The notes beneath the pieces were generated by a model that saw only the letters and a program-made list of their open reading frames with translations, did not search any database and was not told the DNA's origin. A stretch of DNA of 64,000 bases from Escherichia coli (GTDB lineage Bacteria > Pseudomonadota > Gammaproteobacteria > Enterobacterales > Enterobacteriaceae), in the NCBI RefSeq assembly GCF_050920415.1, contig NZ_CP169309.1; one strand, 5' to 3'. Below, piece by piece: positions 1 to 25,036 of the stretch (within the stretch, counting starts at the first letter, position 1; the number at the start of each line of letters is the position of its first letter). A program made the translations under genes and the position numbers.

Positions 1-1424
1 AGCCATACAGTGATCAGCAGTTAACTGCTGGTGTCAGTGCAGCACTTGGTTTATCAACAATTCCAACCAACACCAAACGCTATACCGGTAATGCAGCATT
101 CGATGCGGCATCTCCTGAGGCGCAGGCAAGTTTTATGCGACAGGCGGATCAACTGCGTCGGCAGCAGCAGGCTGAATATAAAACGATGATTGACAGCCAG
201 GTTCGCGATGCGACAGCTGCGTATATGCGTGGCGTTGAATTTCCTAACCCACCTGGTGAGGCTGATTTTATTGCAGCTTATGGAGTCAGAGAAGGAAAAC
301 TGCGATATACCGAGTTCAGAAATACGCAAATCGCCGGACAGTATATAGGCTCTTTCCGCAACATGCCGACAAGCAGCATTACAGCATATGTTGAGCAATT
401 ACGCCCGGATACTGGTGAGACAGGGGAGGGTTATGCGGCACGAGCCGCTCTTTATGACAACGTTGTGTCGGCTGCAAGTCAGGTGATAAAGCAGCGACAG
501 GCTGATCCTGTACAGTTCTCTCTTGCCGCCGGACAGGCAAAGCCTATCGACATGAGCAATAAGGATAACTTTGGACAGAGCGTTGCCTTGCGTGCTGCTC
601 AGGTCAGTGACCTTGCTAAGTCATATGGCACTCCACTGACGTTCTTTTCCAAAGACGAGGCCAATCAGATCGGTGTTTTCTTTCGTGATGCGCCCGTTTC
701 CCAACAGGCAGCATATCTCGATACCATCAGGCAGAGCACTGGTGGTGGGCAGGTGTATATGTCAGCACTACAGCAGATCAGTGCCAACGCTCCATCTGCT
801 GCCGTTGCCGGGATACTGATGGATAAGCCAGGTGGTATTTTGGCAGAAAAAAACTGGTTTAATCCGGATGTTTCCGTGTCTCCTGAAACCGCTGCGCAGA
901 CAATTCTTGCTGGCGCGGCGGCTCGTAAAGGTACTGATGACGCGAAAGGTATTCCGATGCCTAAAGATGCTGATCTCCGCCTTGAGTTTTCTGACATGGT
1001 GAAGGATGCATTTGCTGGTGATGCTCAGGGGGCATCAATGGCATACGAGATCGCAAAGGACTATTACGCTGGTGTGATGGCGAAAAAAGGCGTGGTATCA
1101 GGCGAAATTGACAATGATATCTGGAAACAGGCTGTTAACGTAGCTACAGGTGGCGTGCATGACTATAACGGAATGGGGAATGTTCTTTTGCCGTGGGGAA
1201 TGTCTGCAGAGCAATTCGATAAGCAGGTTAATCAGGCTTGGAATGAACAAGTTGTTGGCACAGGGATAAAAACACCGCCTGGTCAGTATGGTTTGCAAAG
1301 TTACGGCGATAGTCAGTACCTGGTGAAACTTGGTACTGGTTATCTGCTAAAAGATGATGGTTCTCCCGTTGTTCTTGATCTGACACAGAAGCGTCAGAGA
1401 TTCTCCGGAGATATTCCGCAATGA
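1..1424 (+). CDS. Phage virion internal/ejection-type protein, 5' end outside window
   Basis: Frame 3 is open from base 3 to the stop at 1422-1424 (ORF track starts at the first in-window ATG, 135). Acidic Ala/Gly/Gln-rich product directly upstream of two more large same-strand ORFs and a tailspike; ATGA overlap with the next ORF. Function inferred from position only. Confidence 0.5.
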   Translation, partial: PYSDQQLTAGVSAALGLSTIPTNTKRYTGNAAFDAASPEAQASFMRQADQLRRQQQAEYKTMIDSQVRDATAAYMRGVEFPNPPGEADFIAAYGVREGKLRYTEFRNTQIAGQYIGSFRNMPTSSITAYVEQLRPDTGETGEGYAARAALYDNVVSAASQVIKQRQADPVQFSLAAGQAKPIDMSNKDNFGQSVALRAAQVSDLAKSYGTPLTFFSKDEANQIGVFFRDAPVSQQAAYLDTIRQSTGGGQVYMSALQQISANAPSAAVAGILMDKPGGILAEKNWFNPDVSVSPETAAQTILAGAAARKGTDDAKGIPMPKDADLRLEFSDMVKDAFAGDAQGASMAYEIAKDYYAGVMAKKGVVSGEIDNDIWKQAVNVATGGVHDYNGMGNVLLPWGMSAEQFDKQVNQAWNEQVVGTGIKTPPGQYGLQSYGDSQYLVKLGTGYLLKDDGSPVVLDLTQKRQRFSGDIPQ

Positions 1425-3223
1425 GTTACTTTGGCCTTAATCCAGTAAACCAGAATCAGCAGCTTGACGAAGCAGCATCAAATCCAGCTGGCTTTAACAG
1501 CGATGTTGGTTTTTTCGACAATGCTGTAGGAGCGGCATTGTCTGGTTTGTACTCCGGGCTGGTGGCAAAGCCAGATCAGTTGCTCTGGGCAGGGATGGAT
1601 AAAATCGTATCCCCGATTGCTCAGTTTGTTAACGAAAACACCTCGCTCAATGACACTTCAGTTTCATACATTGCCGAGCAGAGAAAACTAGCAGAGCAGC
1701 AGGTTAAGCGGCTGACGCCTGATGCCGCGACAACCGGAACCGCCGGGCAGGTTCTTTATGGGTTGTTCGATATGGGCGGGCAGGCTGTTATCGGTACAAC
1801 GCTCGGTGGTCCGGCCGGAGGTGCTGCGGCGGTAACTTCGCTACAGGGTTTTTCTGAGTTTGAACGGCTGACAGCACAGGGTGTTGATTTCAGGACGGCG
1901 CAGGAAGCGGGATTAGTGCAGGGTATTACTGCTGGTGCCGGAACAATGATCCCTATGAGCCTCGGGTTACGTGCTGGTGGTGCGCTGGCGGAAGGTGTGG
2001 CGGCTCAGCTTGCGCGGACGGGTGAAAGTTCAGTGCGACGCGCCGCAGCAACAGCAGTAAGTGCAACGCCAGATATTGCCTATGCCGCAGGTACAAATAT
2101 TGCGTTCGGTATGGCACAGCGTGGGCTTACTGCAAAAACGCTTCGTGATGGTGGCTATAGCGAAATGGCTAACCAGTATGATGTGTTGGATCGACAGGCA
2201 ATTGCTATTGATGCTGTTCTTGGGGTGGCGTTTGGTGGTGTCGGCAGATTTATTAACTCTCGCGGCGAGTCTACAAGCGCACCAAATTTTTCACCAGTTG
2301 ATATTGATGCTGCACTGGCGGCGAATGCCGCTCATCATGCTGAAATTGATATTGCGCCCGGCGTGCCGATCAACGTGCTTTCGCGCAATTCTCACATTCA
2401 GGCTCTGCGAAAAGCTATGTCTGATGTTAGCCAGGGGAGACCTGTAGACGTTGCCAGCATTGTTGAGTCTGCATCTTTCAGTGAAATTCCTGGGCGCAAG
2501 AGTCTGCTGTCTCAGGCAGTTAATGAGGCTCTGTCATCTGTAGATGATGGAGTAACGGCGCGCGCTATAGAAAATCGGTTGCTTGAAGAACAGGCCGCGC
2601 AGCTTTTGCCGCGTGGAGATAGACAGGTTTACCAGTCTGAAATCGCTAATAGCCAACGAATTATTGAAAATCTCACTGAACAGCGTGCACAAATTCTTGC
2701 AGAAGAGCCAACCGGTAGCGGTAAAGCTTTGTCTCGTGCTCGATCAGATAAACAGGCCAGACTTCGTGATATTGATCAACGAATCCGGCAGGCACAAGAA
2801 CGCCTGGAATTTTCCCGTAACGCGTTGGCACCGCACGAGCCTGGAGGTCAGTTTTTTGAAGCTCGAGCAGAACTGGCACGGCGACAGCAGGCAGAAAGTG
2901 AACTTAATGCTCAGGCTGTTTCATTCTATAAAACAGCAGAGGTCAGGACGCCAGACGAAGTAGCTCCTTTTGAGCCCGGTAAGATATTGCAACAGACAGA
3001 ACAAAAAATGATGGCAGATCCGGCAGGAGATATTGATCTGCGTATAGCTGAAGACTCGCTGCTTGAATCACCTGACATGATAATCACCGTGCTGGATGAT
3101 GATGGTAATCCACAATCGCGCAGTGCGCGTGAAGTACTGGATGAAGCTAACAGGGAAAGTGAGCAGGCAATACAGGATTCCAGCCTGTTTGATGTTGCTG
3201 TGGCGTGTTTCTTGAGAGGTTAA
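1421..3223 (+). CDS. Phage virion internal/ejection-type protein (600 aa)
   Basis: 600-aa ORF translationally coupled to the upstream ORF (ATGA overlap); Gly/Ala-rich segments and a coiled-coil-like Q/R/E-rich region. No catalytic motif recognised by eye. Confidence 0.5.
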   Translation: MSYFGLNPVNQNQQLDEAASNPAGFNSDVGFFDNAVGAALSGLYSGLVAKPDQLLWAGMDKIVSPIAQFVNENTSLNDTSVSYIAEQRKLAEQQVKRLTPDAATTGTAGQVLYGLFDMGGQAVIGTTLGGPAGGAAAVTSLQGFSEFERLTAQGVDFRTAQEAGLVQGITAGAGTMIPMSLGLRAGGALAEGVAAQLARTGESSVRRAAATAVSATPDIAYAAGTNIAFGMAQRGLTAKTLRDGGYSEMANQYDVLDRQAIAIDAVLGVAFGGVGRFINSRGESTSAPNFSPVDIDAALAANAAHHAEIDIAPGVPINVLSRNSHIQALRKAMSDVSQGRPVDVASIVESASFSEIPGRKSLLSQAVNEALSSVDDGVTARAIENRLLEEQAAQLLPRGDRQVYQSEIANSQRIIENLTEQRAQILAEEPTGSGKALSRARSDKQARLRDIDQRIRQAQERLEFSRNALAPHEPGGQFFEARAELARRQQAESELNAQAVSFYKTAEVRTPDEVAPFEPGKILQQTEQKMMADPAGDIDLRIAEDSLLESPDMIITVLDDDGNPQSRSAREVLDEANRESEQAIQDSSLFDVAVACFLRG

Positions 3224-3786
3224 ATTAAATGAGACAGGAATGTATACAAGCGGTCCAGCAGGCGGCGCAGCGCACGTTAACGGCGCGAGAAATACAGAAC
3301 ATTGAAGACCGCATTTATCGCAATATGCGCTCCATTGCTCGTGATGACCCTATGTCGTGGCGACAACTTTCCGAGTCAGAGCGGCTGTATCGTGCAGCAC
3401 AATTGGCATCTGAAGAATTACAGCGAGAAGCGGCATTAAAGAAACGTCGTGTGGCTCTCACTATAGCTGCACGTCAGAGATTGGATAAATTTATCAATAG
3501 CTATCAAGGGGCTGATGGGAAACTTGGCGCTCTTAACCGTACTATAGCTTTTAATGCAGACGGTAAATCTAATTTCCTCTCTGTTGAATCCAGAACAAAA
3601 GCCACCCGTGATTATGCATTGAGTCAATTGCAGGAGGCATTCGAAGCAGTTGATCCTCGCTTTTTTGGTCTGTTTGAAGATGAAGCGGGCGTACGTAGAC
3701 TGGCCCCCTGAATCTCCAGACAACCAGTATCACTTAAATAAGTGATAGTCTTAATACTAGTTTTTAGACTAGTCATTGGAGAACAG

Positions 3787-4152
3787 ATGATTGATGTCTT
3801 AGGGCCGGAGAAACGCAGACGGCGTACCACACAGGAAAAGATCGCAATTGTTCAGCAGAGCTTTGAACCGGGGATGACGGTCTCCCTCGTTGCCCGGCAA
3901 CATGGTGTAGCAGCCAGCCAGTTATTTCTCTGGCGTAAGCAATACCAGGAAGGAAGTCTTACTGCTGTCGCCGCCGGAGAACAGGTTGTTCCTGCCTCTG
4001 AACTTGCTGCCGCCATGAAGCAGATTAAAGAACTCCAGCGCCTGCTCGGCAAGAAAACGATGGAAAATGAACTCCTCAAAGAAGCCGTTGAATATGGACG
4101 GGCAAAAAAGTGGATAGCGCACGCGCCCTTATTGCCCGGGGATGGGGAGTAA
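3787..4152 (+). CDS. insC: IS2 transposase OrfA (InsC)
   Basis: Translation [41 protein letters not shown]... recognised as IS2 InsC; ORF track starts 15 codons upstream at an ATG within the left inverted repeat. Confidence 0.9.
4104..4110 (+). other. A6G slippery heptamer, putative -1 programmed frameshift site joining insC and insD
   Basis: AAAAAAG at the 3' end of insC inside the insC/insD overlap; IS3-family elements produce the OrfAB transposase by -1 frameshifting at such sites. Confidence 0.55.
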
Positions 4153-5015
4153 GCTTAGTCAGCCGTTGTCTCCGGGTGTCGCGTGCGCAGTTGCACGTCA
4201 TTCTCAGACGAACCGATGACTGGATGGATGGCCGCCGCAGTCGTCACACTGATGATACGGATGTGCTTCTCCGTATACACCATGTTATCGGAGAGCTGCC
4301 CACGTATGGTTATCGTCGGGTATGGGCGCTGCTTCGCAGACAGGCAGAACTTGATGGTATGCCTGCGATCAATGCCAAACGTGTTTACCGGATCATGCGC
4401 CAGAATGCGCTGTTGCTTGAGCGAAAACCTGCTGTACCGCCATCGAAACGGGCACATACAGGCAGAGTGGCCGTGAAAGAAAGCAATCAGCGATGGTGCT
4501 CTGACGGGTTCGAGTTCTGCTGTGATAACGGAGAGAGACTGCGTGTCACGTTCGCGCTGGACTGCTGTGATCGTGAGGCACTGCACTGGGCGGTGACTAC
4601 TGGCGGCTTCAACAGTGAAACAGTACAGGACGTCATGCTGGGAGCGGTGGAACGCCGCTTCGGCAACGATCTTCCGTCGTCTCCAGTGGAGTGGCTGACG
4701 GATAATGGTTCATGCTACCGGGCTAATGAAACACGCCAGTTCGCCCGGATGTTGGGACTTGAACCGAAGAACACGGCGGTGCGGAGTCCGGAGAGTAACG
4801 GAATAGCAGAGAGCTTCGTGAAAACGATAAAGCGTGACTACATCAGTATCATGCCCAAACCAGACGGGTTAACGGCAGCAAAGAACCTTGCAGAGGCGTT
4901 CGAGCATTATAACGAATGGCATCCGCATAGTGCGCTGGGTTATCGCTCGCCACGGGAATATCTGCGGCAGCGGGCTTGTAATGGGTTAAGTGATAACAGA
5001 TGTCTGGAAATATAG
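4110..5015 (+). CDS. insD: IS2 transposase OrfB (InsD), DDE integrase-like
   Basis: 301-aa ORF overlapping insC in the -1 frame; sequence ...[50 protein letters not shown]... recognised as IS2 InsD. Confidence 0.9.
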
Positions 5016-7048
5016 GGGCAAATCCAGTACGTGACCTGGTATATGAAATGCGGGGGCAAAATACTGGCAATGCTAAAGCAAGAAAAGGTGCTAAGGCGTG
5101 GAGAGAAGTTACAGAGCTGCTGCGCCGCCGGTTTAATGATGCTGGTGGGGACATTGGCTATCTCGAAAACTGGGGGATCCCTCAACATCATTCTATGGAA
5201 AAGGTTGGGGCGGTATCAAAGGATAAGTGGGTTAGCGATGTTATAGGTAAGCTGGATCGCAAATATTATATCCGAGCCGATGGACAACTGATGAACGATG
5301 CCGAGTTGTCTGCATTTCTTGGAGAGGCTTATAACACGATCGCTACTGGTGGGCTGAATAAGCTTACTGATACCGGAATGCGAATTTCCGGCGCACGTGC
5401 TAACCGTGGTAATGCATCACGACAGATACATTTCAAAGATGCAGATTCCTATCTGCAATATCAGCAACTTTATGGCGATCGCTCTCTATGGGAAATCATG
5501 GTCGGTCACCTGGAAGGTATCAGTAAAGATATTGCACTGGTGGAAACATATGGCCCAAACCCCGATCATGTTTTCCGCTCTCTTCTTGATCAGGTGAAGG
5601 CAGAAACGGCAACAGCTAACCCGAGTAAAACCGGTAAAGTCGAGCGGCTGGCGAACAACACAGAGAATCTGTACAACTTTATTTCCGGAAAGACACAGCC
5701 TGTAGCAAATCCGCACATCGCGCGATGGTCTGACAATATCCGCAACTGGCTGGTTGCCAGCAGACTCGGATCCGCGTTGCTGTCATCGTTCTCTGATCTT
5801 GGAACCATGTATCTGTCTGCGAAGGTGACCAACCTTCCAATGAACCAGTTATTCCGCAACCAGCTTGAAGCTATGGACCCAACGAACCGTACTGAGCTTG
5901 CGCGGGCGCGCCGCGCTGGTCTGGCGATGGAATCTCTACTTGGCAGCGTTAACCGCTGGGCGATGGATAATATGGGGCCGTCAGTGTCTCGTTGGGCTGC
6001 AACGGCGGTAATGCGTGCCAGTGGGCTTACAGCATGGTCAGATGCGCACAAGCGCGCCTATGGCGTAACCATGATGGGAAGCCTGGGAGAAGTAGTGTCA
6101 CGGACACCAGACCTTCGTAGCCTCGATGACTCTGATTTTCGTATCCTGAAAAGCAAAGGGATTACTGACACAGACTGGAGCGTATGGAAGCTGGCGCAAC
6201 AGGAGGACTGGGGGAACGGTAATAATACGATGCTGACACCGGAAAGCATTATGCGTATCCCTGATTCAGCAGTTAAACATCTTGGTGAGCCTGAACGCGT
6301 GAAATTTGAGGCAATGCGTAAACTGCTCGGTGCCGTAACTGAAGAAGTTGATATGGCTGTTATTACACCGGGAGCACGTGAGCAACTGATAACCGGTTCT
6401 GGTATTCAGCGTGGAACATGGAAAGGTGAATTAACGAGAAGTGTTTTCCTGTTTAAATCGTTCCCTATCTCGGTGGTTATGCGTCACTGGTCACGCGCTA
6501 TGGGTATGCCGTCTGCTGGTGGGCGTGCGGCATATATTGCGACGTTTATTGCCAGCACGACCATTCTTGGCGCTTTGTCTCAGCAACTTAACGACCTTGC
6601 GTCTGGTCGTAATCATCGCGAGATGACAGGAGAAGATGCTGCTAAATTTTGGCTTGGTGCTCTACTGAAAGGTGGTGGTCTTGGCCTTTACGGTGACTTT
6701 TTATTGTCAGATCACACTAGGTACGGAAGCGGCGCGCTGGCGTCGATGCTTGGCCCGGTAGCTGGTCTGGTTGATGACGTAGTGAAGATTGCTCAGGGCA
6801 TACCGTTAAATGCTGTGGAAGGGAAGAATGAGCAGACTGGTGGTGATCTGGTTAAGCTGGGGAAGGGGCTGATGCCAGGTGCGAATCTCTGGTACTTGAA
6901 GGCGGCTCTCGATCACATGATCTTTAACCAGATGCAGGAGTATTTTTCACCAGGCTATTTGCGTAAAATGGAGCAACGTTCGAAGAAAGAGTTTAACCAG
7001 ACATACTGGTGGCGACCACAGGATGTCACTCCGCAATAAGGATGAGAA

Positions 7049-7189
7049 ATGATTGCTTTTATTCTTGTTGTGTTTGCGCTTGTTGCACTTGGCGTTATGA
7101 ACCGTAAATGTATCATTGACGATGGCGAATTTGCTGTTGCAGTTATTTTGATATTATCTGGTGTAGCAGGATACATAGGCTTGTCATAA
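7049..7189 (+). CDS. Hypothetical small hydrophobic peptide (46 aa, two predicted hydrophobic segments)
   Basis: ATG at 7049 preceded by AAGGATGAG 4-10 nt upstream; translation MIAFILVVFALVALGVMNRKCIIDDGEFAVAVILILSGVAGYIGLS; stop TAA 7187-7189; followed by palindromes and a terminator. Too short for the ORF track. Confidence 0.35.
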   Translation: MIAFILVVFALVALGVMNRKCIIDDGEFAVAVILILSGVAGYIGLS

Positions 7190-7209
7190 CGTGAGTGTGA
7201 CATGTCACA

Positions 7210-7233
7210 GGCCGCTTTCGCGGCCTTTTCTTT
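7210..7233 (+). terminator. Rho-independent terminator (GGCCGC-TTTC-GCGGCC followed by TTTTCTTT)
   Basis: 6-bp GC stem with 4-nt loop followed by a T-run on the + strand; preceded by the perfect palindrome TGTGACATGTCACA (7196-7209). Overlaps the stop codon of the convergent minus-strand ORF. Confidence 0.5.
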
Positions 7234-7489
7234 ATGTGGTTTGTTTTCGTAGTTGTTCGGCACAATAGTCGAGATGTGTTTGCAGATCCTGCATAGACAT
7301 CTGTGAGCTGGTGACGTAGTTAATCAGTGCAGTCAGTTCGGCAAGTGGGCCATCGACATTAAATCCATCCTTATCGAGATCCCGGAGTAATTTCATCAAG
7401 TGCGATCCTTCCACCAGTGACCTGACGCCTCCCGGCGTGTGAATCCTTTCGGTAAATCCCTCTTCCAGTGGATAGTGATACTGCTGCAT
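7232..7489 (-). CDS. Hypothetical small acidic protein (85 aa from the ATG at 7489) behind a LexA box
   Basis: ORF track gives 7232..7507 from a TTG; a better start is the ATG at 7489 (MQQYHYPLEEGF...) with GGAGAAG 7 nt upstream. A strong LexA box lies about 20 nt upstream. No family recognised by eye. Confidence 0.5.
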   Translation of the reverse strand: MQQYHYPLEEGFTERIHTPGGVRSLVEGSHLMKLLRDLDKDGFNVDGPLAELTALINYVTSSQMSMQDLQTHLDYCAEQLRKQTT

Positions 7490-7508
7490 CTTATCTTCTC
7501 CATGCAAT

Positions 7509-7528
7509 AACTGTATGTTTATACAGTA
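7509..7528. promoter_or_regulatory. LexA (SOS) box AACTGTATGTTTATACAGTA
   Basis: CTGT-N8-ACAG with an AT-rich spacer, 17/20 match to the E. coli consensus TACTGTATATATATACAGTA; sits in the divergent region between the small minus-strand ORF and the tailspike gene. Confidence 0.6.
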
Positions 7529-7684
7529 TCAAATAATTTGTTTGCTATCCAGCACGTTTTGCGAATCACCTGAAAGGTAATATCTGCTCACATTAACACT
7601 CTTTCCATCCATATATGGTTTTTCAGGTAATAGAATAACCAGATATGCGGCGCAACGGGTGCTGCGACTATCTGGAGATTTAAC

Positions 7685-9940
7685 ATGACGGTCTCAACCG
7701 AAGTTGACCACAACGAATACACAGGCAATGGCGTTACGACTTCATTCCCTTATACCTTTAGGGTTTTCAAGGAATCTGATCTGGTAGTGCAGGTGGTTGA
7801 CCTTGACGAAAATATCGCTGTGCTGGCTCTGGATACTGATTACACTGTCACTGGGGCTGGTGGATATAACGGCGGTAATGTAATTCTGTCGAAGGCGTTA
7901 GCTAACGGTTACCAGATTTCTATATCACGAGAGCTCCCGGTTACGCAGGAAACTGATTTGCGTAATCAGGGGAAGTTCTTTGCAGAAGTGCATGAGGATG
8001 CTTTTGATAAGCTAACGATGCTGATCCAGCAGGTTCGAAGTTGGTTTAGCTTGGCGCTGCGCAAGCCGTCATTCGTGGCAAATTATTATAACGCGCTGAA
8101 CAACTATATTCGAAACCTGAAAGACCCGGTAAACCCGCAGGATGCATCCACAAAGAATTATGTGGACAGTACGGTTTTATCGAATATCGACCATACAATC
8201 CGTGTTCCTGATTCTTATATCGATCCGCTGCCACCTCTCGCTCAACTTGAAGGAAGCATAATCGGCATCGCCAACGGTAAGCCCGTTCCGTTCCCTGTGC
8301 CTTCAGGAACGGCGGCTGACGTATTCAACCAGTTGGCCAGCAGCGCTGACGGGAAAGGTGATGCGCTGATAACAGTGAAGCAGCCTTACCAGGGGGCAAT
8401 TTCTCTTTCGCAGCATATAAAAAATGCACAAGCCATTAGTGTTGTTGATTTTGGAGCGACAATTGATGGAACGCTTCACCCTTTAAGCGAGATATTTTCA
8501 ACACTATCAGCTGCTCAGATGGTATATCCATTTGTTTCATCTCTATCTCAATCTGTTGATTATGCTGCGCTTCAGTCCGCATGTAACACGGGAAAAACAG
8601 TGCTTATTCCAAAGGGAACTGGTTACTATAATTCAACTATTTTTCTGAAAAACTCCGTTAGGATTGTTGGAGAGGGAACTGATACAATAAATAGAGCGCA
8701 ATCATTTATGTCTATTGTTGGTAATATTTCAGCCTTTGCTTTAGATCAAGGTGATTCCCTATCGACAAAAATGATTCAGATTTTTATTGATGGTCTTTAT
8801 ATTTTCTATGATCCAGGAACCACACCAACGAATCCTGAAAATGATGGTGGGAAAATTGCATTTAATTTCTACTCGACAATTCCAAATTCAACAAGCTTGG
8901 AAATGTCTGAAATTAAAAACTGTACAGTTCATGGTGCATGGTCATGCTTTAATGATCAGACTGGCACATACTTGACAAAACTTACGAATGTGTGGGCCAG
9001 AAACTGCCATAATGGTTTTACAAAAGGAACTGGCACTACCATTCTGATGGAAAGATGTTATACATCTGGATGTATATCACCATATCAGTTTGGTTCTGTC
9101 TTTGCAGCTACAATGATTAACTGTGCCATGGATGGATCAAATATTTCGTTAAACGCAGGTTCGCTTGGTGGGGCTGGCGTTCATGTTCTTAACACACATA
9201 GTTTTAACATTATTGGTTTTGATGCGGAGGGTAACACCATCTCTACAGATGGTTATGGAGAGGCAGCACTATTCCATTTCGAAAATAGTAGTGGTGGCAT
9301 TTCTGGCCTGACTGCACATCAGAACAGCATGCGAAGTGTTGCGCCAAGTGATGCTGGTGTAGTTTCCTACATCAGGGCGTCAGGTAGCAGCGATGTTAAA
9401 ATTGAGTCATCAGAAGATGATTTATCTGACACCAACACAGTTGCATATACTGGGTCTGGGTATCCCATCATGCTACATGCAACTGACACAGCTAAAATAA
9501 GCGTCTTTAATAGCAGATTCAGGGCGACTACCACTGGTACCCCTGTCTTAAGTACGCTAAGTACTGGTGATGTATCATGGTATGACTGCCCTAAAAAAAC
9601 AGGACTTATCGTAGATGGTTATTCACAAATAACATCTAAGGAAGGATTGCAAACATCATGCTTCTATACCAGTAAAGGCTCTACTGCTGTTGCTGAAAAT
9701 ACTCCGACAACACTTTTCTCTCTACCAGATTCGCAAGGTACTTACATTATTAGCGTATGGGTGGCTGGAAGCGGAGAAAATTACGCATCTACACAACTGG
9801 CAATGTATGATGGAGATAAGCTAATTCTTGTTGCGTTAAAAATAGCAGCATTTCTTAGTTTTTCAGCAACAGGGAGAATTGTAACCATTACAAGCCAGGT
9901 GGCAGGCACTTTAAACTGGACTTACACTAAAATAGGTTGA
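7685..9940 (+). CDS. Phage tailspike / tail fibre (751 aa), probable O-polysaccharide-specific receptor-binding protein
   Basis: N-terminus MTVSTEVDHNEYTGNGVTTSFPYTFRVF... has the Y-x-G-x-G...F...F signature of podovirus tail-fibre/tailspike particle-binding domains; from memory it resembles epsilon15/phiV10-type tailspikes (unverified). The C-terminal two thirds are visibly AT-rich and Ser/Thr/Asn/Gly-rich, consistent with a beta-helical receptor-binding domain. Confidence 0.75.
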   Translation: MTVSTEVDHNEYTGNGVTTSFPYTFRVFKESDLVVQVVDLDENIAVLALDTDYTVTGAGGYNGGNVILSKALANGYQISISRELPVTQETDLRNQGKFFAEVHEDAFDKLTMLIQQVRSWFSLALRKPSFVANYYNALNNYIRNLKDPVNPQDASTKNYVDSTVLSNIDHTIRVPDSYIDPLPPLAQLEGSIIGIANGKPVPFPVPSGTAADVFNQLASSADGKGDALITVKQPYQGAISLSQHIKNAQAISVVDFGATIDGTLHPLSEIFSTLSAAQMVYPFVSSLSQSVDYAALQSACNTGKTVLIPKGTGYYNSTIFLKNSVRIVGEGTDTINRAQSFMSIVGNISAFALDQGDSLSTKMIQIFIDGLYIFYDPGTTPTNPENDGGKIAFNFYSTIPNSTSLEMSEIKNCTVHGAWSCFNDQTGTYLTKLTNVWARNCHNGFTKGTGTTILMERCYTSGCISPYQFGSVFAATMINCAMDGSNISLNAGSLGGAGVHVLNTHSFNIIGFDAEGNTISTDGYGEAALFHFENSSGGISGLTAHQNSMRSVAPSDAGVVSYIRASGSSDVKIESSEDDLSDTNTVAYTGSGYPIMLHATDTAKISVFNSRFRATTTGTPVLSTLSTGDVSWYDCPKKTGLIVDGYSQITSKEGLQTSCFYTSKGSTAVAENTPTTLFSLPDSQGTYIISVWVAGSGENYASTQLAMYDGDKLILVALKIAAFLSFSATGRIVTITSQVAGTLNWTYTKIG

Positions 9941-9975
9941 TGTTATGCGTGGGGAGCAATGCTCCCCATCATCAA

Positions 9976-11835
9976 TTAAAAAATAAATGGCTTGTCATTT
10001 TTTAATTTTTTCCCAAACTCCCTTGAGCCTTCTAGAGTGAAATGACTATTATCAAAGTAAAGATAATCACCTTTAGTAGAAAGGATGTCACAATTCATTG
10101 ACTTTCCGCACTGCTCGGCAAGCGTATCTATGTATTTATACGAATGCTGGTTGCTACCAAGATAGCCTTTTATCGTATTGTTAATTTCAACTCTACTATT
10201 GTCATAATACTTTTTAGAGTATTTATTTATCCCATCAACTGTGTTTACGCCAGATTTAAAAGCAGACTTAATTATTTCCATTGGCTGTGCCGTAAACTTC
10301 ATCTTAGGCCCAAATACAATAACTTCTCCTTTAGTCCTCTCCTGTATTTTGCCTATAGAGTAAAGCATCCCGAACAGATCGCCAACGCCATAATCATCAT
10401 GAAGGATTATAATGTTAGCTTCAGCTATGGCTGGAGATGAGATTACGTCATTGAATATTTTTTTGCACTTTTCTACATAGGGCATGTCGTTTGGTGTATA
10501 ACCAAAGTTTGAACATAAGTTTGTAGTTCTTATATAAGTTATATCACCCTTCATCCCATTTTCAGTAAGTGCATAAGTCAGATCTATGCCATGAGAATTA
10601 CCGATTATTACTATTTTTTTGTCACCTGTCTTCGGTACAGGGTGAGGCTTGTCTCCATCAACCCAATACCTGTTCATTTGTTCTTTTAGCTGTTCGGACG
10701 TCATTGTGGCAAACGAAAACCTTGATGGAATTCCAGATAGCAATAGTACAGCGAAGCACAAACCAACTACACCACCTACAGGTAGCACGATTGAAGTTAA
10801 TTCATTCAAGGACCTGCCGTTTTTAAATTTTGAAAGTGCCTTTCTTGAAGGGTTTTCAATTAAATAAAATGATGCGGCACCAATAAGAATTGATAAGGCA
10901 ACACCTGATACTGTATAAACCATATCATCCATCTTATTCATTGACATATATACAACTATGGGCCAGTGAACCAGATATACCGAGTATGAAATTTTCCCAA
11001 CCCATTGAGATAATGCATTATCAAGTAATAGGTTATCTTTACATCCAAGATAAATGACAAAGAAAGTAGAAACGACTGGTATTAAGGCAAGATACCCAGG
11101 CCACTTCATTAAGCTGTTAAGCAAGACTATCCCCGATACTGCAAAGGCTATGGCAATCCATCTAAATACAGCAGTGCGTTTTGAATTTTGTATAGTAGGA
11201 AGAAGGTAGGCAAGGCCGCCAGCCAGCATCTCCCAAGCTCTGCTTGACAGAAGATAAAATGCAGCGCCCTGATTATTATAAGAAAGATACACTGAGGCAG
11301 TAAATGATATAATTGCAAGGATGGCAACAACATACCTTATATGCTTAGCGCCCAATAGCTTTGCAATCACCATCATTATGATTGGATATACCATGTAAAA
11401 CTGCCACTCTACAGAAAGCGACCATGTATGAAGAAGCCATTTCTGCTTTGATGCAGTATCAAAATAATCAATGCTATGGTAATACTCAACGTTTGAGAAA
11501 AATAAAAGGCTACTTCTTACGTGTTGAGCCAGGTATTCATATTCAGAAGGTAAAAGAATGAAGTAACCAACTATCAGAACAGCAACTGAAACTACAGTTA
11601 AAGCAGGTATAATTCTTCTTGCCCTATCAAGATAAAATCCTAACAGTGAAAAGTTTCCATTAGATATCTTTGTGTAAATTATTCCAGTCATCAGATACCC
11701 TGATATAACAAAGAATATATCTACGCCTGAAAATCCACCAGAGAACCCTTTGACTCCGAAGTGATAAAGGACAACTGCCATAACAGCAATAGCCCTAAGC
11801 CCGCCTATATCTGTTCTGTATTTTAAAGAAGACAT
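9976..11835 (-). CDS. Membrane acyltransferase-3 family protein with C-terminal SGNH-like domain; probable O-antigen acetyltransferase (OafA/Oac-like)
   Basis: 619 aa; N-terminal R-x10-H motif (RTDIGGLRAIAVMAVVLYH) and about 10 hydrophobic helices typical of acyltransferase-3; C-terminal soluble domain with a GNSH block. Strongly AT-rich gene, convergent with the tailspike. Confidence 0.8.
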   Translation of the reverse strand: MSSLKYRTDIGGLRAIAVMAVVLYHFGVKGFSGGFSGVDIFFVISGYLMTGIIYTKISNGNFSLLGFYLDRARRIIPALTVVSVAVLIVGYFILLPSEYEYLAQHVRSSLLFFSNVEYYHSIDYFDTASKQKWLLHTWSLSVEWQFYMVYPIIMMVIAKLLGAKHIRYVVAILAIISFTASVYLSYNNQGAAFYLLSSRAWEMLAGGLAYLLPTIQNSKRTAVFRWIAIAFAVSGIVLLNSLMKWPGYLALIPVVSTFFVIYLGCKDNLLLDNALSQWVGKISYSVYLVHWPIVVYMSMNKMDDMVYTVSGVALSILIGAASFYLIENPSRKALSKFKNGRSLNELTSIVLPVGGVVGLCFAVLLLSGIPSRFSFATMTSEQLKEQMNRYWVDGDKPHPVPKTGDKKIVIIGNSHGIDLTYALTENGMKGDITYIRTTNLCSNFGYTPNDMPYVEKCKKIFNDVISSPAIAEANIIILHDDYGVGDLFGMLYSIGKIQERTKGEVIVFGPKMKFTAQPMEIIKSAFKSGVNTVDGINKYSKKYYDNSRVEINNTIKGYLGSNQHSYKYIDTLAEQCGKSMNCDILSTKGDYLYFDNSHFTLEGSREFGKKLKNDKPFIF

Positions 11836-11982
11836 AATCGCTATCGTTTTGAGTAAGATGCATTAATGATATCACCTTTAGGGTAATTTCGTTAAGAGTT
11901 ATCCGATCAAATTTAATCCACATATGGTTTATTGTGTATGATGAACTCACCAACTAAGGGGGTTCTTTATGCACAATAAACG

Positions 11983-12396
11983 GTGGTCACTATGGCGCAT
12001 GTGCTGACAACAGAGTCAGTAAATCAGGGGTTAAGCCTGACTGCACTGGCGTCCGTGTTCGTTGGTATACCGCCTGAGGTGGCTTTAGGTGCTCTTGCTG
12101 GTGCGGTAATTTTTGTTACCTCAGCGGTTGAGTATCCGATAAAGCGTAGGTTGCTCCTGGCGCTCCTAAGCTTCCTCTGCGGCGTTCTCTTCTATAAAGC
12201 GACAGCTTCCATTCTGATTGGCTTTGCCAGCCTGATACCAACGATTACGCAGGACTCTTTTGAGAAGGGCATTGTGTATTCCGCCGGGGCATTCGTGTCT
12301 GCAATCGTCGCTGTTCGCATTGGCATCTGGCTGTATCACCGTTCTGAAAATCCGCGCGACATGATCCCGGGGAGAAAAGACGATGACCAGTCCTGA
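11983..12396 (+). CDS. Putative holin (137 aa multi-span membrane protein)
   Basis: First gene of a + strand cluster ending in endolysin and Rz/Rz1; several hydrophobic helices and a charged C-terminus; two closely spaced in-frame Met codons (MVTMAHV). Holin call is positional. Confidence 0.5.
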   Translation: MVTMAHVLTTESVNQGLSLTALASVFVGIPPEVALGALAGAVIFVTSAVEYPIKRRLLLALLSFLCGVLFYKATASILIGFASLIPTITQDSFEKGIVYSAGAFVSAIVAVRIGIWLYHRSENPRDMIPGRKDDDQS

Positions 12397-12676
12397 TCTG
12401 CTTCTCATCCTTAACGCCGCTATCTGCGGTGGCATTGCAATCCGAGTGCTTCTGTTCCGCCGTGACGGGTCACGTCACCGCTGGTGGGGTGGGTGGCTCG
12501 CCTATCTGCTGATCGTCGTGGCAGCCAGCGTACCTATCCGGACTTTCTACGGGTACTACGTCAGCGCCGACTGGTCAGAAGTCATCATCAAAGCCGTGTT
12601 CCTGGCTGCGCTCATCAAGACAAAAGGGAACGTGGTGCAAATTTTCAAGATAACGAGGTCCCAGCATGGACATTAA
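12383..12676 (+). CDS. Putative second holin/antiholin-like membrane protein (97 aa)
   Basis: Overlaps the end of the previous ORF and the start of the endolysin gene; two or three hydrophobic segments; basic C-terminus. Confidence 0.45.
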   Translation: MTSPDLLLILNAAICGGIAIRVLLFRRDGSRHRWWGGWLAYLLIVVAASVPIRTFYGYYVSADWSEVIIKAVFLAALIKTKGNVVQIFKITRSQHGH

Positions 12677-13295
12677 CCAATTCCAGCGTGCAGCTGGCAT
12701 CAGTGAGGTGCTGGCCGCGCGCTGGTACCTGCATATCACCGCAGCCATGAAAGAGTTTGGCATCGAGCAACCGCTGCACCAGGCGATGTTTATCGCGCAG
12801 GTGGGGCATGAGTCTACTGGTTTCACCCGGCTGCAGGAAAACTTCAACTACAGCGTTGCAGGGCTCGCAGGATTCGTCCGCGCCGGGCGACTTACTCAGG
12901 GTCAGGCCAACGCGCTGGGCCGCCGTGCTGGCGAGCCATCGTTACCGCTGGAGCGCCAGCGCGCGATCGCCAATCTGGCGTACAGCAAACGCATGGGGAA
13001 CAATGCCCCTGGTGATGGCTGGAATTACCGTGGCCGCGGACTTATCCAGATTACCGGTTTGAATAACTATCGTGATTGCGGAAACGTCCTGAAAGTGGAC
13101 CTGCTGGAGAATCCTGAACTGTTGGCGCAGGACGAATATGCGGCTCGTAGCGCGGCGTGGTTCTTCGCCAGCAAAGGATGCATGAAGTATACCGGCGATA
13201 TTGCACGTGTAACTCTGATTATCAATGGTGGCCGGAACGGCATCGACGACCGGCGCGCGCGGTACATCACTGCCAGTAAGGTGCTGGCGGTATGA
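12666..13295 (+). CDS. Endolysin, glycoside hydrolase family 19 (chitinase-like lysozyme)
   Basis: 209 aa; motif FIAQVGHESTGF...NYRGRGLIQITG typical of GH19-type phage endolysins; position between holin-like genes and Rz. Confidence 0.85.
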   Translation: MDINQFQRAAGISEVLAARWYLHITAAMKEFGIEQPLHQAMFIAQVGHESTGFTRLQENFNYSVAGLAGFVRAGRLTQGQANALGRRAGEPSLPLERQRAIANLAYSKRMGNNAPGDGWNYRGRGLIQITGLNNYRDCGNVLKVDLLENPELLAQDEYAARSAAWFFASKGCMKYTGDIARVTLIINGGRNGIDDRRARYITASKVLAV

Positions 13296-13774
13296 TCTGG
13301 GCATTCGCAAAAGCATACTGGAAACAGTTGCTTATCGTGGTGATGCTTGCTGTTCTGGTCATATCGGGAATTGTTTCCTGGAATGTACACGGCAGTCGTC
13401 AGTACGATGCCGGGTATGCGCAGGCGAAGGAAGACCGCAAAGCTGAAGATGAGATAGTTCGTCAGCACTACGAACAGGAGAAATCGATCAATGAACGTGA
13501 AGCGCAGCAGAGGATCGACCAGGCGCGCAATGATGCTCTTGATGCTGCCGCTCGCGCTGGCCGGTTGCAGCAACAACTCTTTGCCATCCGTGAGCAGCTC
13601 AGGCAGTATAACGCCATTGTCGGCGCTGGGACGTCAGCCGCAGACACCGGAGTTTTGCTTGCCGACGTGCTCAGCAAATCTCTCGAGAGAAACAGACAAC
13701 TGGCAGAGTATGCTGACCGGGCAGCCGAAGCCGGAAGAGTCTGCGAAAAACAATACGACACCCTGACCAGATAG
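13292..13774 (+). CDS. Rz-like inner-membrane spanin (i-spanin)
   Basis: 160 aa; N-terminal transmembrane helix followed by coiled-coil-prone Q/R/E/A-rich periplasmic domain; ATGA overlap with the endolysin stop; contains an embedded +1 frame lipoprotein ORF. Confidence 0.75.
   Translation: MIWAFAKAYWKQLLIVVMLAVLVISGIVSWNVHGSRQYDAGYAQAKEDRKAEDEIVRQHYEQEKSINEREAQQRIDQARNDALDAAARAGRLQQQLFAIREQLRQYNAIVGAGTSAADTGVLLADVLSKSLERNRQLAEYADRAAEAGRVCEKQYDTLTR
13530..13766 (+). CDS. Rz1-like outer-membrane lipoprotein spanin (o-spanin), embedded in Rz
   Basis: +1 frame ORF wholly inside Rz; from ATG at 13530 the product MMLLMLPLALAGCS... has a signal peptide with lipobox LAGC and a Pro-rich mature part. 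ORF track starts it further upstream at 13491. Confidence 0.7.
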   Translation: MMLLMLPLALAGCSNNSLPSVSSSGSITPLSALGRQPQTPEFCLPTCSANLSRETDNWQSMLTGQPKPEESAKNNTTP

Positions 13775-13884
13775 CATGGCATTTTTCATGGTACTGATTT
13801 CCGGTGACGGTATATAAAACGGTACTAGAAAAATGAAGTTTTGGAAAAATGTTATCACTCAATTGGTTATGATTGTCGTAAATA

Positions 13885-13899
13885 ATTGAGTGGGAATGA
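13885..13899 (+). other. Putative prophage attR core / remnant of the guaA 3' end (ATT GAG TGG GAA TGA = IEWE-stop)
   Basis: 15-nt string encoding the C-terminal residues ...IEWE plus stop of GMP synthase as recalled for E. coli GuaA, in the orientation expected for guaA converging on yfgI; preceded in frame by a stop codon, so it is an isolated gene end, not a gene. Confidence 0.45.
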
Positions 13900-13924
13900 T
13901 TTGATCCCTGCACTATGAATTAGC

Positions 13925-13953
13925 AAAACCCTCTGTTACTACAGAGGGTTTTT
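13925..13953. terminator. Bidirectional rho-independent terminator (AAAA-CCCTCTGT-TACT-ACAGAGGG-TTTTT)
   Basis: Perfect 8-bp stem, 4-nt loop, flanked by A-run and T-run; lies between the guaA-end remnant and the convergent yfgI stop. Confidence 0.65.
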
Positions 13954-13991
13954 ATACTCACGAATCATAGGATTGAAGTTACTGACATCGC

Positions 13992-14531
13992 TTAGTTAAA
14001 CCAGCTGTCCGATTTGTTCTCTTCTGCTTTGCCCACGCTTTTCATCAGATCGCGACCGCCTTCAGTCATATTCCTGTTTGCGTCAGCTTCAGATTGCACC
14101 ACATCGGTTTGCGCAGCTTTGTGCTTCAGTTCCTGATCGATAAATTCGTTTTCTCGCTTAACGCGGGCTTCTTCTTTCGCCAGCGCCAGTTTTTGTTTCT
14201 GAATCTCTAAGCTGCGTAGCTCATCTTCATAACTTTGATCGCGTTTCTTGTCCGCAGTGGCTTCGGCGTCCAGTTTATCCTGACGAGCTTTCTTATTCGC
14301 CGCTGCCGTTGCCGCTCTTTTATTAGCCGCGGCCTGGGCGTTTGCGCGACGTTGCTTCTCTTGCTGGATTTCCCTGTTGCGCTCCGCGACCCATTCGTCA
14401 TGCTGCCTTTGCTCTTCATTTTTACCTTGCTGTTCCGCTTCTGCGACAGCAGAGAGTTGATCCTGCAATGATGAGGCGATAGCCGGATAGCTTAAGGAGG
14501 CTAAGATGGCGCAAAGAAAAACTTTCTTCAT
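13992..14531 (-). CDS. yfgI: YfgI, periplasmic protein (179 aa)
   Basis: Signal peptide MKKVFLCAILASLSYPAIA followed by a highly charged coiled-coil-like region; length and position match E. coli yfgI. Confidence 0.85.
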   Translation of the reverse strand: MKKVFLCAILASLSYPAIASSLQDQLSAVAEAEQQGKNEEQRQHDEWVAERNREIQQEKQRRANAQAAANKRAATAAANKKARQDKLDAEATADKKRDQSYEDELRSLEIQKQKLALAKEEARVKRENEFIDQELKHKAAQTDVVQSEADANRNMTEGGRDLMKSVGKAEENKSDSWFN

Positions 14532-14546
14532 GACTCCTCCTGATTA

Positions 14547-15065
14547 TTAGCTCTTTTCAGGACATTTGGTATTTGGCTGAATACGCGTTTCGTTATACGT
14601 CGTGGTAATAACAACGGCTAAACCTGTCGTAAACTGGCACTCTTTACCCACCTGGGTGGAGGTATACACTTTGGTGCCTTCCTTATACGTTAGAGAAACA
14701 CCTTCCACTAAGGTTTTATCATTCACCATAGAACCTGCTGCCGCGCCAACAGCTCCGCCGCCAACTGCACCTGCCGTCGTTCCGGAATTGCTGCCAGACC
14801 CCACGTTGTGGCCGATAACACCGCCAGCGACTGCACCAATAAGCGCGCCGAAGGCTTGTGCGTTTCGTTTATTTTGGGAGTTGTCTACGGCAACTTTTGC
14901 GGGAAGAATGGAAATAATATTAACGGTTTTAGTTTCTTGTTTGGTATTCAGTTGATCGGTTTGATAAACATCGGCGGCATGATCATCAGCATTTGACTGG
15001 CATCCTGCCAGAGTGAATGACGCTAACATTGCCACAGGCAGAAGACATTTTTTAAATTTCATCAC
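14547..15065 (-). CDS. yfgH: YfgH, outer-membrane lipoprotein with glycine-zipper region (172 aa)
   Basis: Lipobox LAGCQ; Gly-rich GxxxG repeats (GALIGAVAGGVIGHNVGSG...); matches E. coli yfgH. Confidence 0.85.
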   Translation of the reverse strand: MMKFKKCLLPVAMLASFTLAGCQSNADDHAADVYQTDQLNTKQETKTVNIISILPAKVAVDNSQNKRNAQAFGALIGAVAGGVIGHNVGSGSNSGTTAGAVGGGAVGAAAGSMVNDKTLVEGVSLTYKEGTKVYTSTQVGKECQFTTGLAVVITTTYNETRIQPNTKCPEKS

Positions 15066-15375
15066 TATTCCTTGTTATACACATTACGAAAAATAAGACA
15101 TTTAAGATCATCAAAAGAGGAAAGTAAATGTATTGCGTATAAAGGAATAGATTAAATTTATTAAAATTCATGTGGAAAATAATTTATAAAAATACATCAT
15201 TAAAACATATGTATTAATTTTATATTTATTTCGCAGCCAAACAGGATAAACATCAGTCAGGACAAAGACGTAAAATTTAAGATGAAAGAATATCTGCCGC
15301 TTTGATAATCCCAAAGAGCAAAAGCATCCGACAGCGAGGTGCCGTTATGTTCTGTGAAAGTGGAGAAGGTAACCG

Positions 15376-15567
15376 CTAACGTTGTACCGGTGATTCGACG
15401 GAGAGTGTGGATTGCTGAGCTTCTTTTTTGCTCTGATGGTGCTGCCATGCACCGACGGACGAGTAGATAAAACGGCCAAAGAAGAAGATAAAGCTGATGA
15501 GCAGTACGATACGGGTCATGCGACTGTTAAATCGGTGTCGTTTTCGCATACTGGTTGCCTGACTCAC
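15376..15567 (-). CDS. yfgG: YfgG, small membrane protein (63 aa)
   Basis: Translation MSQATSMRKRHRFNSRMTRIVLLISFIFFFGRFIYSSVGAWQHH... matches E. coli YfgG as recalled. Confidence 0.8.
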   Translation of the reverse strand: MSQATSMRKRHRFNSRMTRIVLLISFIFFFGRFIYSSVGAWQHHQSKKEAQQSTLSVESPVQR

Positions 15568-17930: not shown

Positions 17931-18256
17931 TATTTTTTCCAGAGGCGGTCGAACTCCGCCTTCGCAAAATAAGCGGAAGCCTGGCGAAGGATATCGTTAC
18001 TGCGGCGCAGTTCACGATTTTCACGTTCCAGCTCTTTCAGACGCTGACGTTCAGCGGTGGTGAGCCCACCATCACCGCTCCCGGTATCCCTCTCATGCTG
18101 GCGAACCCAGACACGCAGAGTCTCTGGCGTACAGCCAATCTTTGGAGCAATGGAACAAATTGCCGCCCATTGTGAGTCATATTCGCCCTGACTTTCCAGA
18201 ACCATACGAACTGCGCGTTGACGGACTTCGGGGGAAAAACGAGTATTTTTAGTCAT
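17930..18256 (-). CDS. IS3-family transposase OrfA (helix-turn-helix, leucine zipper)
   Basis: 108 aa [57 protein letters not shown]...; ends in an A6 run (plus-strand T6 around 17933-17938) at the OrfA/OrfB junction, the likely frameshift window. Confidence 0.9.
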
Positions 18257-19480: not shown

Positions 19481-19507
19481 GCGGGCCGACATTTCTTGTC
19501 GGCCCGC
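19481..19507. terminator. Bidirectional terminator hairpin between convergent pdeF and ppx (GCGGGCCGACA-TTTCT-TGTCGGCCCGC)
   Basis: 11-bp GC-rich perfect inverted repeat with 5-nt loop, 6 nt after the pdeF stop and just beyond the ppx stop. Confidence 0.55.
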
Positions 19508-19513
19508 AAAGCA

Positions 19514-23126
<3,613 letters not shown>

Positions 23127-23297
23127 TACCACTTTTACTCCGTTTTATTCACGGGACACTGCCTGGATATTATGGCGAGCAATATTGGCAGATGTCCAAC
23201 TATGCCAGAAAAGGGGGAAAAAAACTGCTGGAGCTTGCGATTTACAGGTGAATTGAAAAACGCCAGCGGCAGAGCTGGCGCTTTAACTACGGGGGCA

Positions 23298-23936: not shown

Positions 23937-24991
<1,055 letters not shown>

Positions 24992-25036
24992 TTACTTGCG
25001 GTAGAAAAATAAAATTCGGCGCAATTCTAACAGGGA

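Follow-up and report, generated by a model that had tools for sequence, protein, structure and literature searches.

The first 13,901 nucleotides of the 64,000-nucleotide Escherichia coli sequence analysed here (contig NZ_CP169309.1; the whole stretch is called the window) are, with a probability that we put at about 0.93, the late or right arm of a temperate podovirus of the phiV10/epsilon15 type (genus Uetakevirus) that is integrated site-specifically at the 3' end of the host guaA gene. The prophage is ordinary in mechanism and a further member of a well-known genus, and a preliminary description made from the raw sequence recognised this well-understood prophage type correctly; it mentioned neither the IS2 element that disrupts the prophage nor its receptor module, which is not that of phiV10. 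The orientation of the arm requires that the integrase, early, terminase and head genes lie upstream of base 1.

When the window DNA was compared by megablast with 50,697 phage records, its best phage match was phiV10, and 63% of the query was covered at 94% identity by phiV10 and the O157 typing phages 9 and 10. Further best matches were PAS61, phiv142-3, HEMP4 and ZX5, and more distant ones were Tyrion, the SPN1S/SPC32H/SPN9TCW group, TL-2011b and epsilon15. The preliminary description had left its assignment to an epsilon15/phiV10-like temperate podovirus to such a BLAST comparison, and the best matches all fall in the phiV10/Uetakevirus group, none of them in an unrelated lineage; each of the records opened (phiV10, epsilon15 and SPC32H) is classified as Uetakevirus. 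The same assignment is supported by virion proteins that are 97–99.8% identical to those of phiV10, by the att core at the host junction, and by a late module that is collinear with those of phiV10, epsilon15 and SPC32H: virion proteins, small membrane protein, ant (minus strand), tailspike, conversion gene (minus strand), membrane protein, holin, GH19 endolysin, Rz/Rz1 and att. The order originally proposed (ejection-type proteins, tailspike, acyltransferase, holins, GH19 endolysin, Rz/Rz1, att) is thus present, far beyond what chance would produce, and DNA identity to phiV10 amounts to 98.2–98.5% along 5.9 kb and to 84–89% along another 3 kb. Phage phiV10 (NC_007804) shares with the window its gene order from p18 to attP, the 17-bp att core and integration at the guaA 3' end.

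The right end of the prophage is marked by a single exact copy of the core ATTGAGTGGGAATGATT, of which none is expected in the window by chance, and which PMC9782041 reports as the experimentally demonstrated attP/attB core of phiV10, epsilon15 and vB_EcoP_ZX5. Homology to phiV10 ends at the last base of this core, 13901 and not 13899 as first given, and the published core therefore stands exactly at the prophage/host junction, where the preliminary gene order had its att end. Past attR come the host guaA terminator, recognisable as a hairpin, and the host genes yfgI (13992–14531, minus strand) and yfgH (14547–15065, minus strand). In the E. coli strain FT130 a like prophage is flanked by guaA and yfgI in the order guaA-int...Rz-yfgI, the integrase gene adjoining guaA (attL). 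Of the two prophage ends attR alone is visible in the window, and integration at the guaA 3' end through ATTGAGTGGGAATGATT is supported at this junction; such integration explains why the lysis genes abut attR and yfgI. No tRNA gene was found at or near the att site, which is consistent with integration at the guaA 3' end and not in a tRNA gene.

The junction also bears on the very improbable reading that the arm is a fragment of a lytic T7-like podovirus or a phage-derived island unrelated to lysogeny. A weak Pfam match to Phage_T7_tail at the N-terminal end of the tailspike (E = 0.38), a match of tailspike amino acids 1–156 to a solved depolymerase anchor domain (PDB sequence search, E = 2e-26), and the presence of PF24072 (T7_gp14) on the gene just upstream in near-identical sibling prophages could be taken that way, but the exact attR core at the host junction, a predicted LexA/Ant switch and 94–98% identity to a phage that is temperate and has a P4-type integrase rule it out, and there is no RNA polymerase or other hallmark of the Autographiviridae.

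The genus rule of the International Committee on Taxonomy of Viruses (ICTV) asks for a nucleotide similarity of roughly 70% or more to genus members across the whole genome. With IS2 removed, phiV10 covers 70.6% of the visible arm, and identity multiplied by coverage is 66.4%; this arm carries the most variable genes, and the value is lowered by the tailspike C-terminus and the acyltransferase, neither of which is related to its phiV10 counterpart. In GenBank entry AP025751.1, a sibling that is 99.95% identical, the left arm (terminase to tailspike, 20.5 kb) is 92.5% covered by phiV10 at 98.1% identity, a match that extends over 18 kb. By the whole-genome rule the present copy likely falls within the genus Uetakevirus, and it is probably a species separate from phiV10.

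Table 1. Features of the prophage arm and stretches of DNA similarity to phiV10 (aa, amino acids; ORF, open reading frame)
Feature	Positions	Strand	Amino acid identity to phiV10 / epsilon15	Basis and remarks
p18 / epsilon15 gp15 homologue, C-terminal 473 codons	1-1424	+	99.8% / 43%	large internal virion protein; start upstream of window; PHROG 992 "head protein", E = 1e-209
p19 / epsilon15 gp16 homologue, 600 aa	1421-3223	+	97.2% / 33%	virion/ejection-apparatus protein; PHROG 1145, full length
p20 / epsilon15 gp17 homologue, 5' fragment, ~156 codons	3229-3695	+	99.4% / 28% (p20 rebuilt without IS2)	PHROG 684 "virion structural protein", profile positions 1-161
IS2, complete, 1331 bp	3696-5026	+		terminal repeats TAGACTGGCCCC... 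/ ...GGGGCAAATCCA
IS2 transposase ORFs	3742-4152, 4110-5015	+		overlapping pair
p20 homologue, 3' fragment, ~668 codons	5027-7039	+		PHROG 684, profile positions 157-831; 98.5% DNA identity to phiV10
Two-helix membrane protein, 46 aa, phiV10 p21 homologue	7049-7189	+		translation, hydrophobic segments; gene also called in sibling contig DRR168434_145
Terminator-like hairpin	7209-7226			directly past p21; phiV10 record annotates a terminator at the matching position
Antirepressor homologue, 85 aa (phiV10 p24 / epsilon15 gp19 / SPC32H Ant)	7232-7489	-	97% / 85%	sequence identity
LexA-type box CTGTATGTTTATACAG	7511-7526			~20 bp upstream of ant start; near consensus, TAACTGTATGTTTATACAGTA (7508-7528)
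Tailspike, 751 aa	7685-9940	+	90% / 87% (aa 1-160)	anchor aa 1-160 (7685-8164); receptor-binding part aa 216-751 (8330-9937)
AT3-SGNH acyltransferase, 619 aa, OafA/OafB architecture	9976-11835	-		convergent with tailspike gene; PHROG 6705 "O-antigen acetylase", E = 9e-179
Three-helix membrane protein, 134 aa, Phage_holin_8 (phiV10 p27 / epsilon15 gp23 homologue)	11992-12396	+	82% (phiV10 p27)	PF16931; PHROG 198 holin
Holin, 97 aa, Phage_holin_3_7, divergent allele	12383-12676	+		PF05449; PHROG 217; two hydrophobic segments
GH19 endolysin, 209 aa, phiV10 p29 homologue	12666-13295	+	90% / 86%	PF00182; PDB 4OK7 (SPN1S endolysin), E = 7e-113
Rz-type i-spanin, 160 aa, phiV10 p30 homologue	13292-13774	+	95% / 86%	PF10721 DUF2514; N-terminal membrane anchor
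Rz1-type o-spanin, 91 aa, phiV10 p30a homologue	13491-13766	+	96% / 88%	embedded in Rz in another frame; lipobox L-A-G-C
attR core ATTGAGTGGGAATGATT, 17 bp	13885-13901	+		duplicate of last guaA bases
DNA, p18 C-terminal part, p19, p20 start	1-3696			98.2% DNA identity to phiV10
DNA, remainder of p20, p21, terminator	5027-7234			98.5% DNA identity to phiV10
DNA, p24 homologue (-), tailspike codons 1-160	7232-8166			88.6% DNA identity to phiV10
DNA, receptor/conversion module	8167-11861			no DNA match to phiV10
DNA, membrane protein, holin, endolysin, Rz/Rz1, attP arm	11862-13901			84.3% DNA identity to phiV10

The p20 homologue is interrupted at about codon 156 by a complete IS2 element; the virion genes themselves had been listed correctly in the preliminary description, which overlooked this 1331-bp insertion inside one of them. 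The element has the properties of IS2: its length is right, its terminal inverted repeats are imperfect, its two transposase ORFs overlap, and 5 bp of target sequence are duplicated on either side (GTACG, at 3691–3695 and 5027–5031). The NCBIfam models for its two transposase proteins are matched over their full lengths (TnpA, 121 of 121 positions, 276 bits against a cut-off of 229, E = 4e-83; TnpB, 301 of 301 positions, 728 bits against a cut-off of 597, E = 1e-219). It is present in a single copy within the window, and removal of the element with one copy of GTACG restores a p20 ORF of 824 codons. An in-frame ATG at position 5000, in the end of IS2, opens an ORF of 679 codons for the C-terminal fragment of p20, which could be translated, although there is no reason to suppose that such a fragment is functional. 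To judge from its sequence, the present copy probably cannot produce infectious virions as long as IS2 stays in place, whereas conversion, lysis and immunity should be unimpaired.

Very close relatives of this prophage carry p20 without IS2. Contig DRR168434_145 is 100.000% identical to positions 5027–16000 (10,974 bp) and 99.95% identical to positions 1–3703 and encodes an uninterrupted 824-amino-acid p20, and AP025751.1, which has one mismatch in 4,676 bp relative to the window, also has no IS2 in p20. Since siblings this similar are free of the element, the insertion must be very recent and specific to the strain from which the window comes. An exact-protein look-up of the tailspike returned two public assemblies. 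ERR10854063 encodes the identical tailspike and also includes a contig with genes for the small and large terminase subunits, the portal, the major capsid protein, a Bbp16-type cement protein and a gp10-type staple protein, and AP025751.1 carries terminase, portal and capsid genes. Related loci contain lambda-P/DnaT-type replication genes, cro- and repressor-like genes and RecT.

The serious alternative to a recently disabled phage is a decayed, non-inducible cryptic prophage in which IS2 is one of several lesions and upstream genes have been lost, and we regard this as possible but unlikely. It would agree with the splitting of an 824-amino-acid virion protein gene, with a genome in which insertion sequences (ISs) are active, a second one lying in the neighbouring pdeF gene (17001–18310), and with the state of the closest complete E. 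coli relative, FT130 (NZ_CP040090), whose prophage is only about 29 kb long (13195–42350 of the locus examined) and passes straight from a cro-like region to portal, its terminase and replication genes having been deleted. In FT130 a prophage of this type has thus decayed independently at the same site. All other genes visible in the window are, however, full length and 84–99.8% identical to those of functional phages, and the 99.95–100% identical siblings have an intact p20 together with terminase, portal and capsid genes, so that IS2 seems to have struck once, and very recently, in an element that is intact in other respects; the distinction between a remnant and a recently disabled phage is a matter of degree. 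A very recent IS2 knockout of a virion gene that can be dated against IS2-free siblings makes a clean case of prophage domestication in an IS-active Escherichia lineage.

The preliminary description called the products of p18 through p20 ejection-type proteins, which is reasonable on synteny and the literature: gp15, gp16 and gp17 are counted in the packaging/injection apparatus of epsilon15 (PMC12391199), and ejection genes like those for T7 gp14, gp15 and gp16 have been assigned in epsilon15 by synteny (PMC8954989). When the part of p18 inside the window was scanned with Pfam, no significant lytic transglycosylase domain, or indeed any Pfam domain, came up, and NCBIfam gave no names for phage proteins beyond IS2 and a weak AT3 match.

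The second point that had gone unmentioned is that the receptor module is not that of phiV10. The preliminary description likened the N-terminal part of the tailspike to epsilon15 gp20 and phiV10, and this is borne out over amino acids 1–160 (Table 1; SPC32H Tsp is 82.5% identical over the same part), and the C-terminus has no match in phiV10 or epsilon15. Amino acids 219–356 match the LKA1, phi297, Sf6 and P22-type tailspikes (4RU4, 4RU5 and Sf6). An AlphaFold model (AF2) of amino acids 216–751, built from an eight-sequence alignment, has a mean predicted local distance difference test score (pLDDT) of 76.3 and consists mostly of short beta strands, and the top 15 Foldseek matches to it are all phage tailspikes or depolymerases (LKA1 gp49, phi297, Sf6 and CBA120 TSP2 among them) with a probability of 1.00 and low TM-scores of 0.2–0.4. 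This part of the protein is therefore predicted to be a parallel beta-helix receptor-binding module that has been swapped in. The GC fraction is 0.37–0.42 in 8167–11861 (0.41–0.42 in the tailspike part and 0.37 in the acyltransferase gene) versus about 0.50 elsewhere.

The tailspike C-terminus was found in no sequenced phage isolate, the best matches there being about 52% in Braunvirinae siphoviruses, 45% in Lederbergvirus 611R6 and 33–37% in Kayfunavirus, and none of the isolates sequenced carries the module formed by it and the acyltransferase. In a set of 5,426 complete E. coli genomes the two occur together only in FT130 (98.6% DNA identity; its tailspike is 98% identical), and the tailspike C-terminus alone occurs at 97% in five porcine strains, ETEC1703, ETEC1717, ETEC1718, ETEC1730 and PEC422. 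In the ETEC1730 tailspike (WP_213834158) the receptor domain (536 residues, 97% identity) follows directly on residue 116 of a head-binding domain of the P22 gp9 type, and the prophage that encodes it has a Lederbergvirus-like backbone in P22 order (gp10, needle, ejection proteins, arc, ant, tailspike) with no adjacent acyltransferase annotated. The swap junction lies near residue 216 of the window tailspike and residue 117 of the ETEC1730 tailspike.

These similarities could also be read as evidence that the window holds a P22-like (Lederbergvirus) prophage, as a P22-type tailspike from a P22-ordered prophage has a C-terminus 97% identical to amino acids 216–751, and there is a match of 45% to the Lederbergvirus 611R6 tailspike. 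We consider this to have hardly any chance of being correct: the N-terminus of the tailspike is the epsilon15/phiV10 anchor and not the P22 head-binding domain, and the virion proteins, the position of the lysis cassette, the att site and the gene order are all those of phiV10. Only the receptor module is held in common with the P22-type phages, which points to module exchange, and on comparison of the two tailspikes it is clear that this module has passed between podoviruses of the Uetakevirus and Lederbergvirus types. It adds to the cases in which epsilon15-like and P22-like podoviruses have exchanged a receptor module.

The gene convergent with the tailspike gene was described at first as an O-antigen acyltransferase, and its product indeed contains the Pfam domains PF01757 (AT3; amino acids 10–319, E = 6e-31) and PF19040 ("SGNH fused to AT3"; amino acids 402–611, E = 1e-12), the O-antigen being the putative acceptor by analogy. 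With R14-X10-H25 in helix 1, GNSH at 411–414, DNSH at 595–598 and about 10–11 hydrophobic segments, the protein shows the features published for the AT3-SGNH OafA/OafB architecture (PMC9558356). It is 99.4% identical to its FT130 homologue and at most 30% identical to characterised phage acetylases (30% to that of SPC32H; the SCU-116 protein is 28% identical), it is unrelated to the phiV10 oac product, and a sequence search of the PDB found no relative. It shares its place and strand with phiV10 oac and its place with the SPC32H oac gene (620 amino acids). The phiV10 record annotates Oac with acetylation of the O157 antigen and superinfection immunity (see also PMC11854483 and PMC9782041). By analogy the acyltransferase of the window may acetylate the O-antigen that the neighbouring tailspike recognises, and it is presumably a lysogenic-conversion gene.

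All three carriers of the tailspike C-terminus that were checked (FT130, ETEC1730 and PEC422) have a wzx/wzy cluster of the O2/O50 family, and an O2/O50 wzy is found in 132 of the 5,426 complete E. coli genomes (2.4%). By our own estimate the probability of this co-occurrence by chance, with two phage backbones, is about 6e-4 if the lineages are independent. The co-occurrence is suggestive only, and makes an O2/O50-type O-antigen the probable receptor. SCU-116, which is also O2/O50, carries a Uetakevirus prophage with a tailspike 58% identical over its full length and an AT3-family acetylase; by its sequence this is a related but distinct tailspike/acetylase module in the same serogroup. A broken acyltransferase gene in the O-antigen cluster was considered as a mark of the tailspike carriers and rejected, as SCU-116, with a different tailspike, has the same fragmentary annotation.

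We tentatively suggest, as an idea that may well prove wrong, that the tailspike C-terminus and the acyltransferase form an undescribed O2/O50-specific adsorption and seroconversion module on Uetakevirus prophages, the receptor half of which has been shuttled to P22-like phages. If this were true, lysogens would show an O-acetylated O2/O50 variant that lies outside current serotyping schemes and would be resistant to the parental phage. Serogroup O2 is a major one among avian and extraintestinal pathogenic E. coli, and a tailspike/acetylase pair predicted to target and modify the O2/O50 antigen is relevant to phage typing, reporter phages and depolymerase use.

Several points weigh against the main reading of the arm, that of a Uetakevirus prophage with a conversion gene. 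The similarity of the visible arm to phiV10, with IS2 removed, is only 66% as identity times coverage. The left portion of about 26 kb with integrase, repressor, replication, terminase and head genes lies outside the window and could carry further deletions, as in the FT130 relative. The ejection role of p18 through p20 comes from synteny and literature, with no supporting domain match here. We infer both the acetylation target and the tailspike receptor, and the O2/O50 carriers may be non-independent lineages.

Between the virion genes and the tailspike gene the preliminary description had seen a moron slot. This slot contains no cargo moron; it is occupied by the p21 homologue and by an antirepressor homologue behind a LexA-type box. 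The latter is 88% identical to SPC32H_020, which is annotated "ant", and phiV10, epsilon15, FT130 and the siblings all have a CTGT-N8-ACAG box in the corresponding place, though the spacer bases vary. A small Ant homologue preceded by a predicted SOS box is the arrangement of the SPC32H Ant and 186 Tum-type switches, so the 85-amino-acid gene is a putative part of the induction switch and not a moron; it fits the published SPC32H antirepressor switch and is in that sense already known. A review (PMC7380047) describes LexA-repressed antirepressors in several Salmonella prophages and credits Lemire et al. 2011 and Kim and Ryu 2013. Farther downstream, the interval from ant to the tailspike gene contains ATCACCTGAAAGGTAAT, the counterpart of an operator that is annotated as a repressor site in epsilon15 (ATTACCTGTAAGGTAAT). 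A promoter scan gave no excess over shuffled sequences (14 found versus 15.5 expected), and no promoter is claimed. In phiV10 the p21–p24 interval of about 1 kb holds p22 and a Bro-N protein, and this Bro-N block is absent from the window; the same slot holds a gene of 98 codons in FT130 and four extra genes, one of them for Bro-N, in SCU-116.

The visible arm thus supplies the internal-virion/ejection proteins p18 to p20 (p20 being split), the tailspike, the acyltransferase and all parts of a lysis cassette. If homology to SPC32H is a guide, induction would proceed through the 85-amino-acid antirepressor, the promoter of which would be held off by LexA. By analogy with phiV10 Oac and Salmonella OafA/OafB, acyltransferase expressed in the lysogen would O-acetylate the host O-antigen, and on the same analogy the modified O-antigen would escape the tailspike of incoming sibling phages, with seroconversion and superinfection exclusion as the expected result.

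The holins, GH19 endolysin and Rz/Rz1 named in the preliminary description are all present and collinear with phiV10; the PF16931, PF05449, PF00182 and PF10721 assignments were made on DNA of the sibling contig DRR168434_145 that is 100% identical to the window. The 97-amino-acid holin is only 62–64% identical to the holins of phiV10, epsilon15, FT130 and SPC32H, and the flanking lysis genes are 80–95% identical; this has the appearance of a local allele replacement within the lysis cassette.

The differences from known relatives lie mostly in the modules already described. Phage phiV10 has its own O157-specific tailspike C-terminus and a 338-amino-acid AT3-only Oac, whereas the window has an unrelated predicted beta-helix domain and the 619-amino-acid AT3-SGNH enzyme; phiV10 also has the p22/p23 Bro-N block (about 1 kb) and an unsplit p20, whereas in the window the block is missing, the holin is 62% identical and p20 is split by IS2. 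SPC32H and SPN1S (Uetakevirus SPN1S) share the layout p20, small membrane protein, ant (minus), tsp (plus), an AT3-SGNH oac of about 620 amino acids (minus), membrane protein, holin, GH19 endolysin, Rz and int, and their Ant and p20 are 88% and 94% identical to those of the window, but in SPC32H, a phage of Salmonella, the acetylase is 30% identical, the tailspike C-terminus is unrelated, and one small gene, for which the annotation gives a putative bactoprenol-linked glucose translocase, is additional to those of the window. The type member epsilon15 has a collinear late region, the att core and a LexA-type box before gp19, with a tailspike anchor 87% identical, gp19/Ant 85% identical and lysis genes 62–88% identical; its ejection/virion proteins, in contrast, are only 28–43% identical, and its seroconversion works through an O-antigen polymerase and a polymerase inhibitor where the window has an acyltransferase instead. 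The FT130, AP025751.1, DRR168434 and ERR10854063 prophages have tailspikes 98–100% and acyltransferases 99.4–100% identical to those of the window and the same integration site, and none of them has IS2 in p20; FT130 differs further in its extra 98-codon gene, placed before ant, in more divergent lysis genes (64–96% amino acid identity) and in having no terminase or replication genes. The P22-type tailspike of ETEC1730 shares the receptor part and the O2/O50-type cluster of its host, and differs in its N-terminal 116 residues.

The host flank at 13850–33850 is about 97.4% identical to the best of the 5,426 complete RefSeq E. coli genomes, the closest being CE10 and IAI39; AP025751.1 is not among these genomes. 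Neither the p20::IS2 junction nor the host-side att flank had an exact match in the species-representative genomes scanned, and exact look-ups of the two truncated p20 products returned nothing. The second insertion sequence noted above belongs to the IS3 family and measures 1310 bp; its ends read TGAACCGCCCCGGG..., its transposase ORFs are on the minus strand, it has a 3-bp CAT duplication, and we take it to be IS629/IS3411-like. It interrupts the host cyclic di-GMP phosphodiesterase gene pdeF/yfgF, which begins at 15919, and includes an ALIL frameshift pseudoknot (RF01497, 121 bits) at 17859–17975. Two sibling contigs stop about 28 bp into this element and so probably share the pdeF insertion, though they have no IS2 in p20. 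Farther into the host part, and unrelated to the prophage, a naRNA4 (CssrE, RF02564, 89 bits), a nucleoid-associated RNA derived from a repetitive extragenic palindromic (REP) sequence, is found on the minus strand at 53127–53203.

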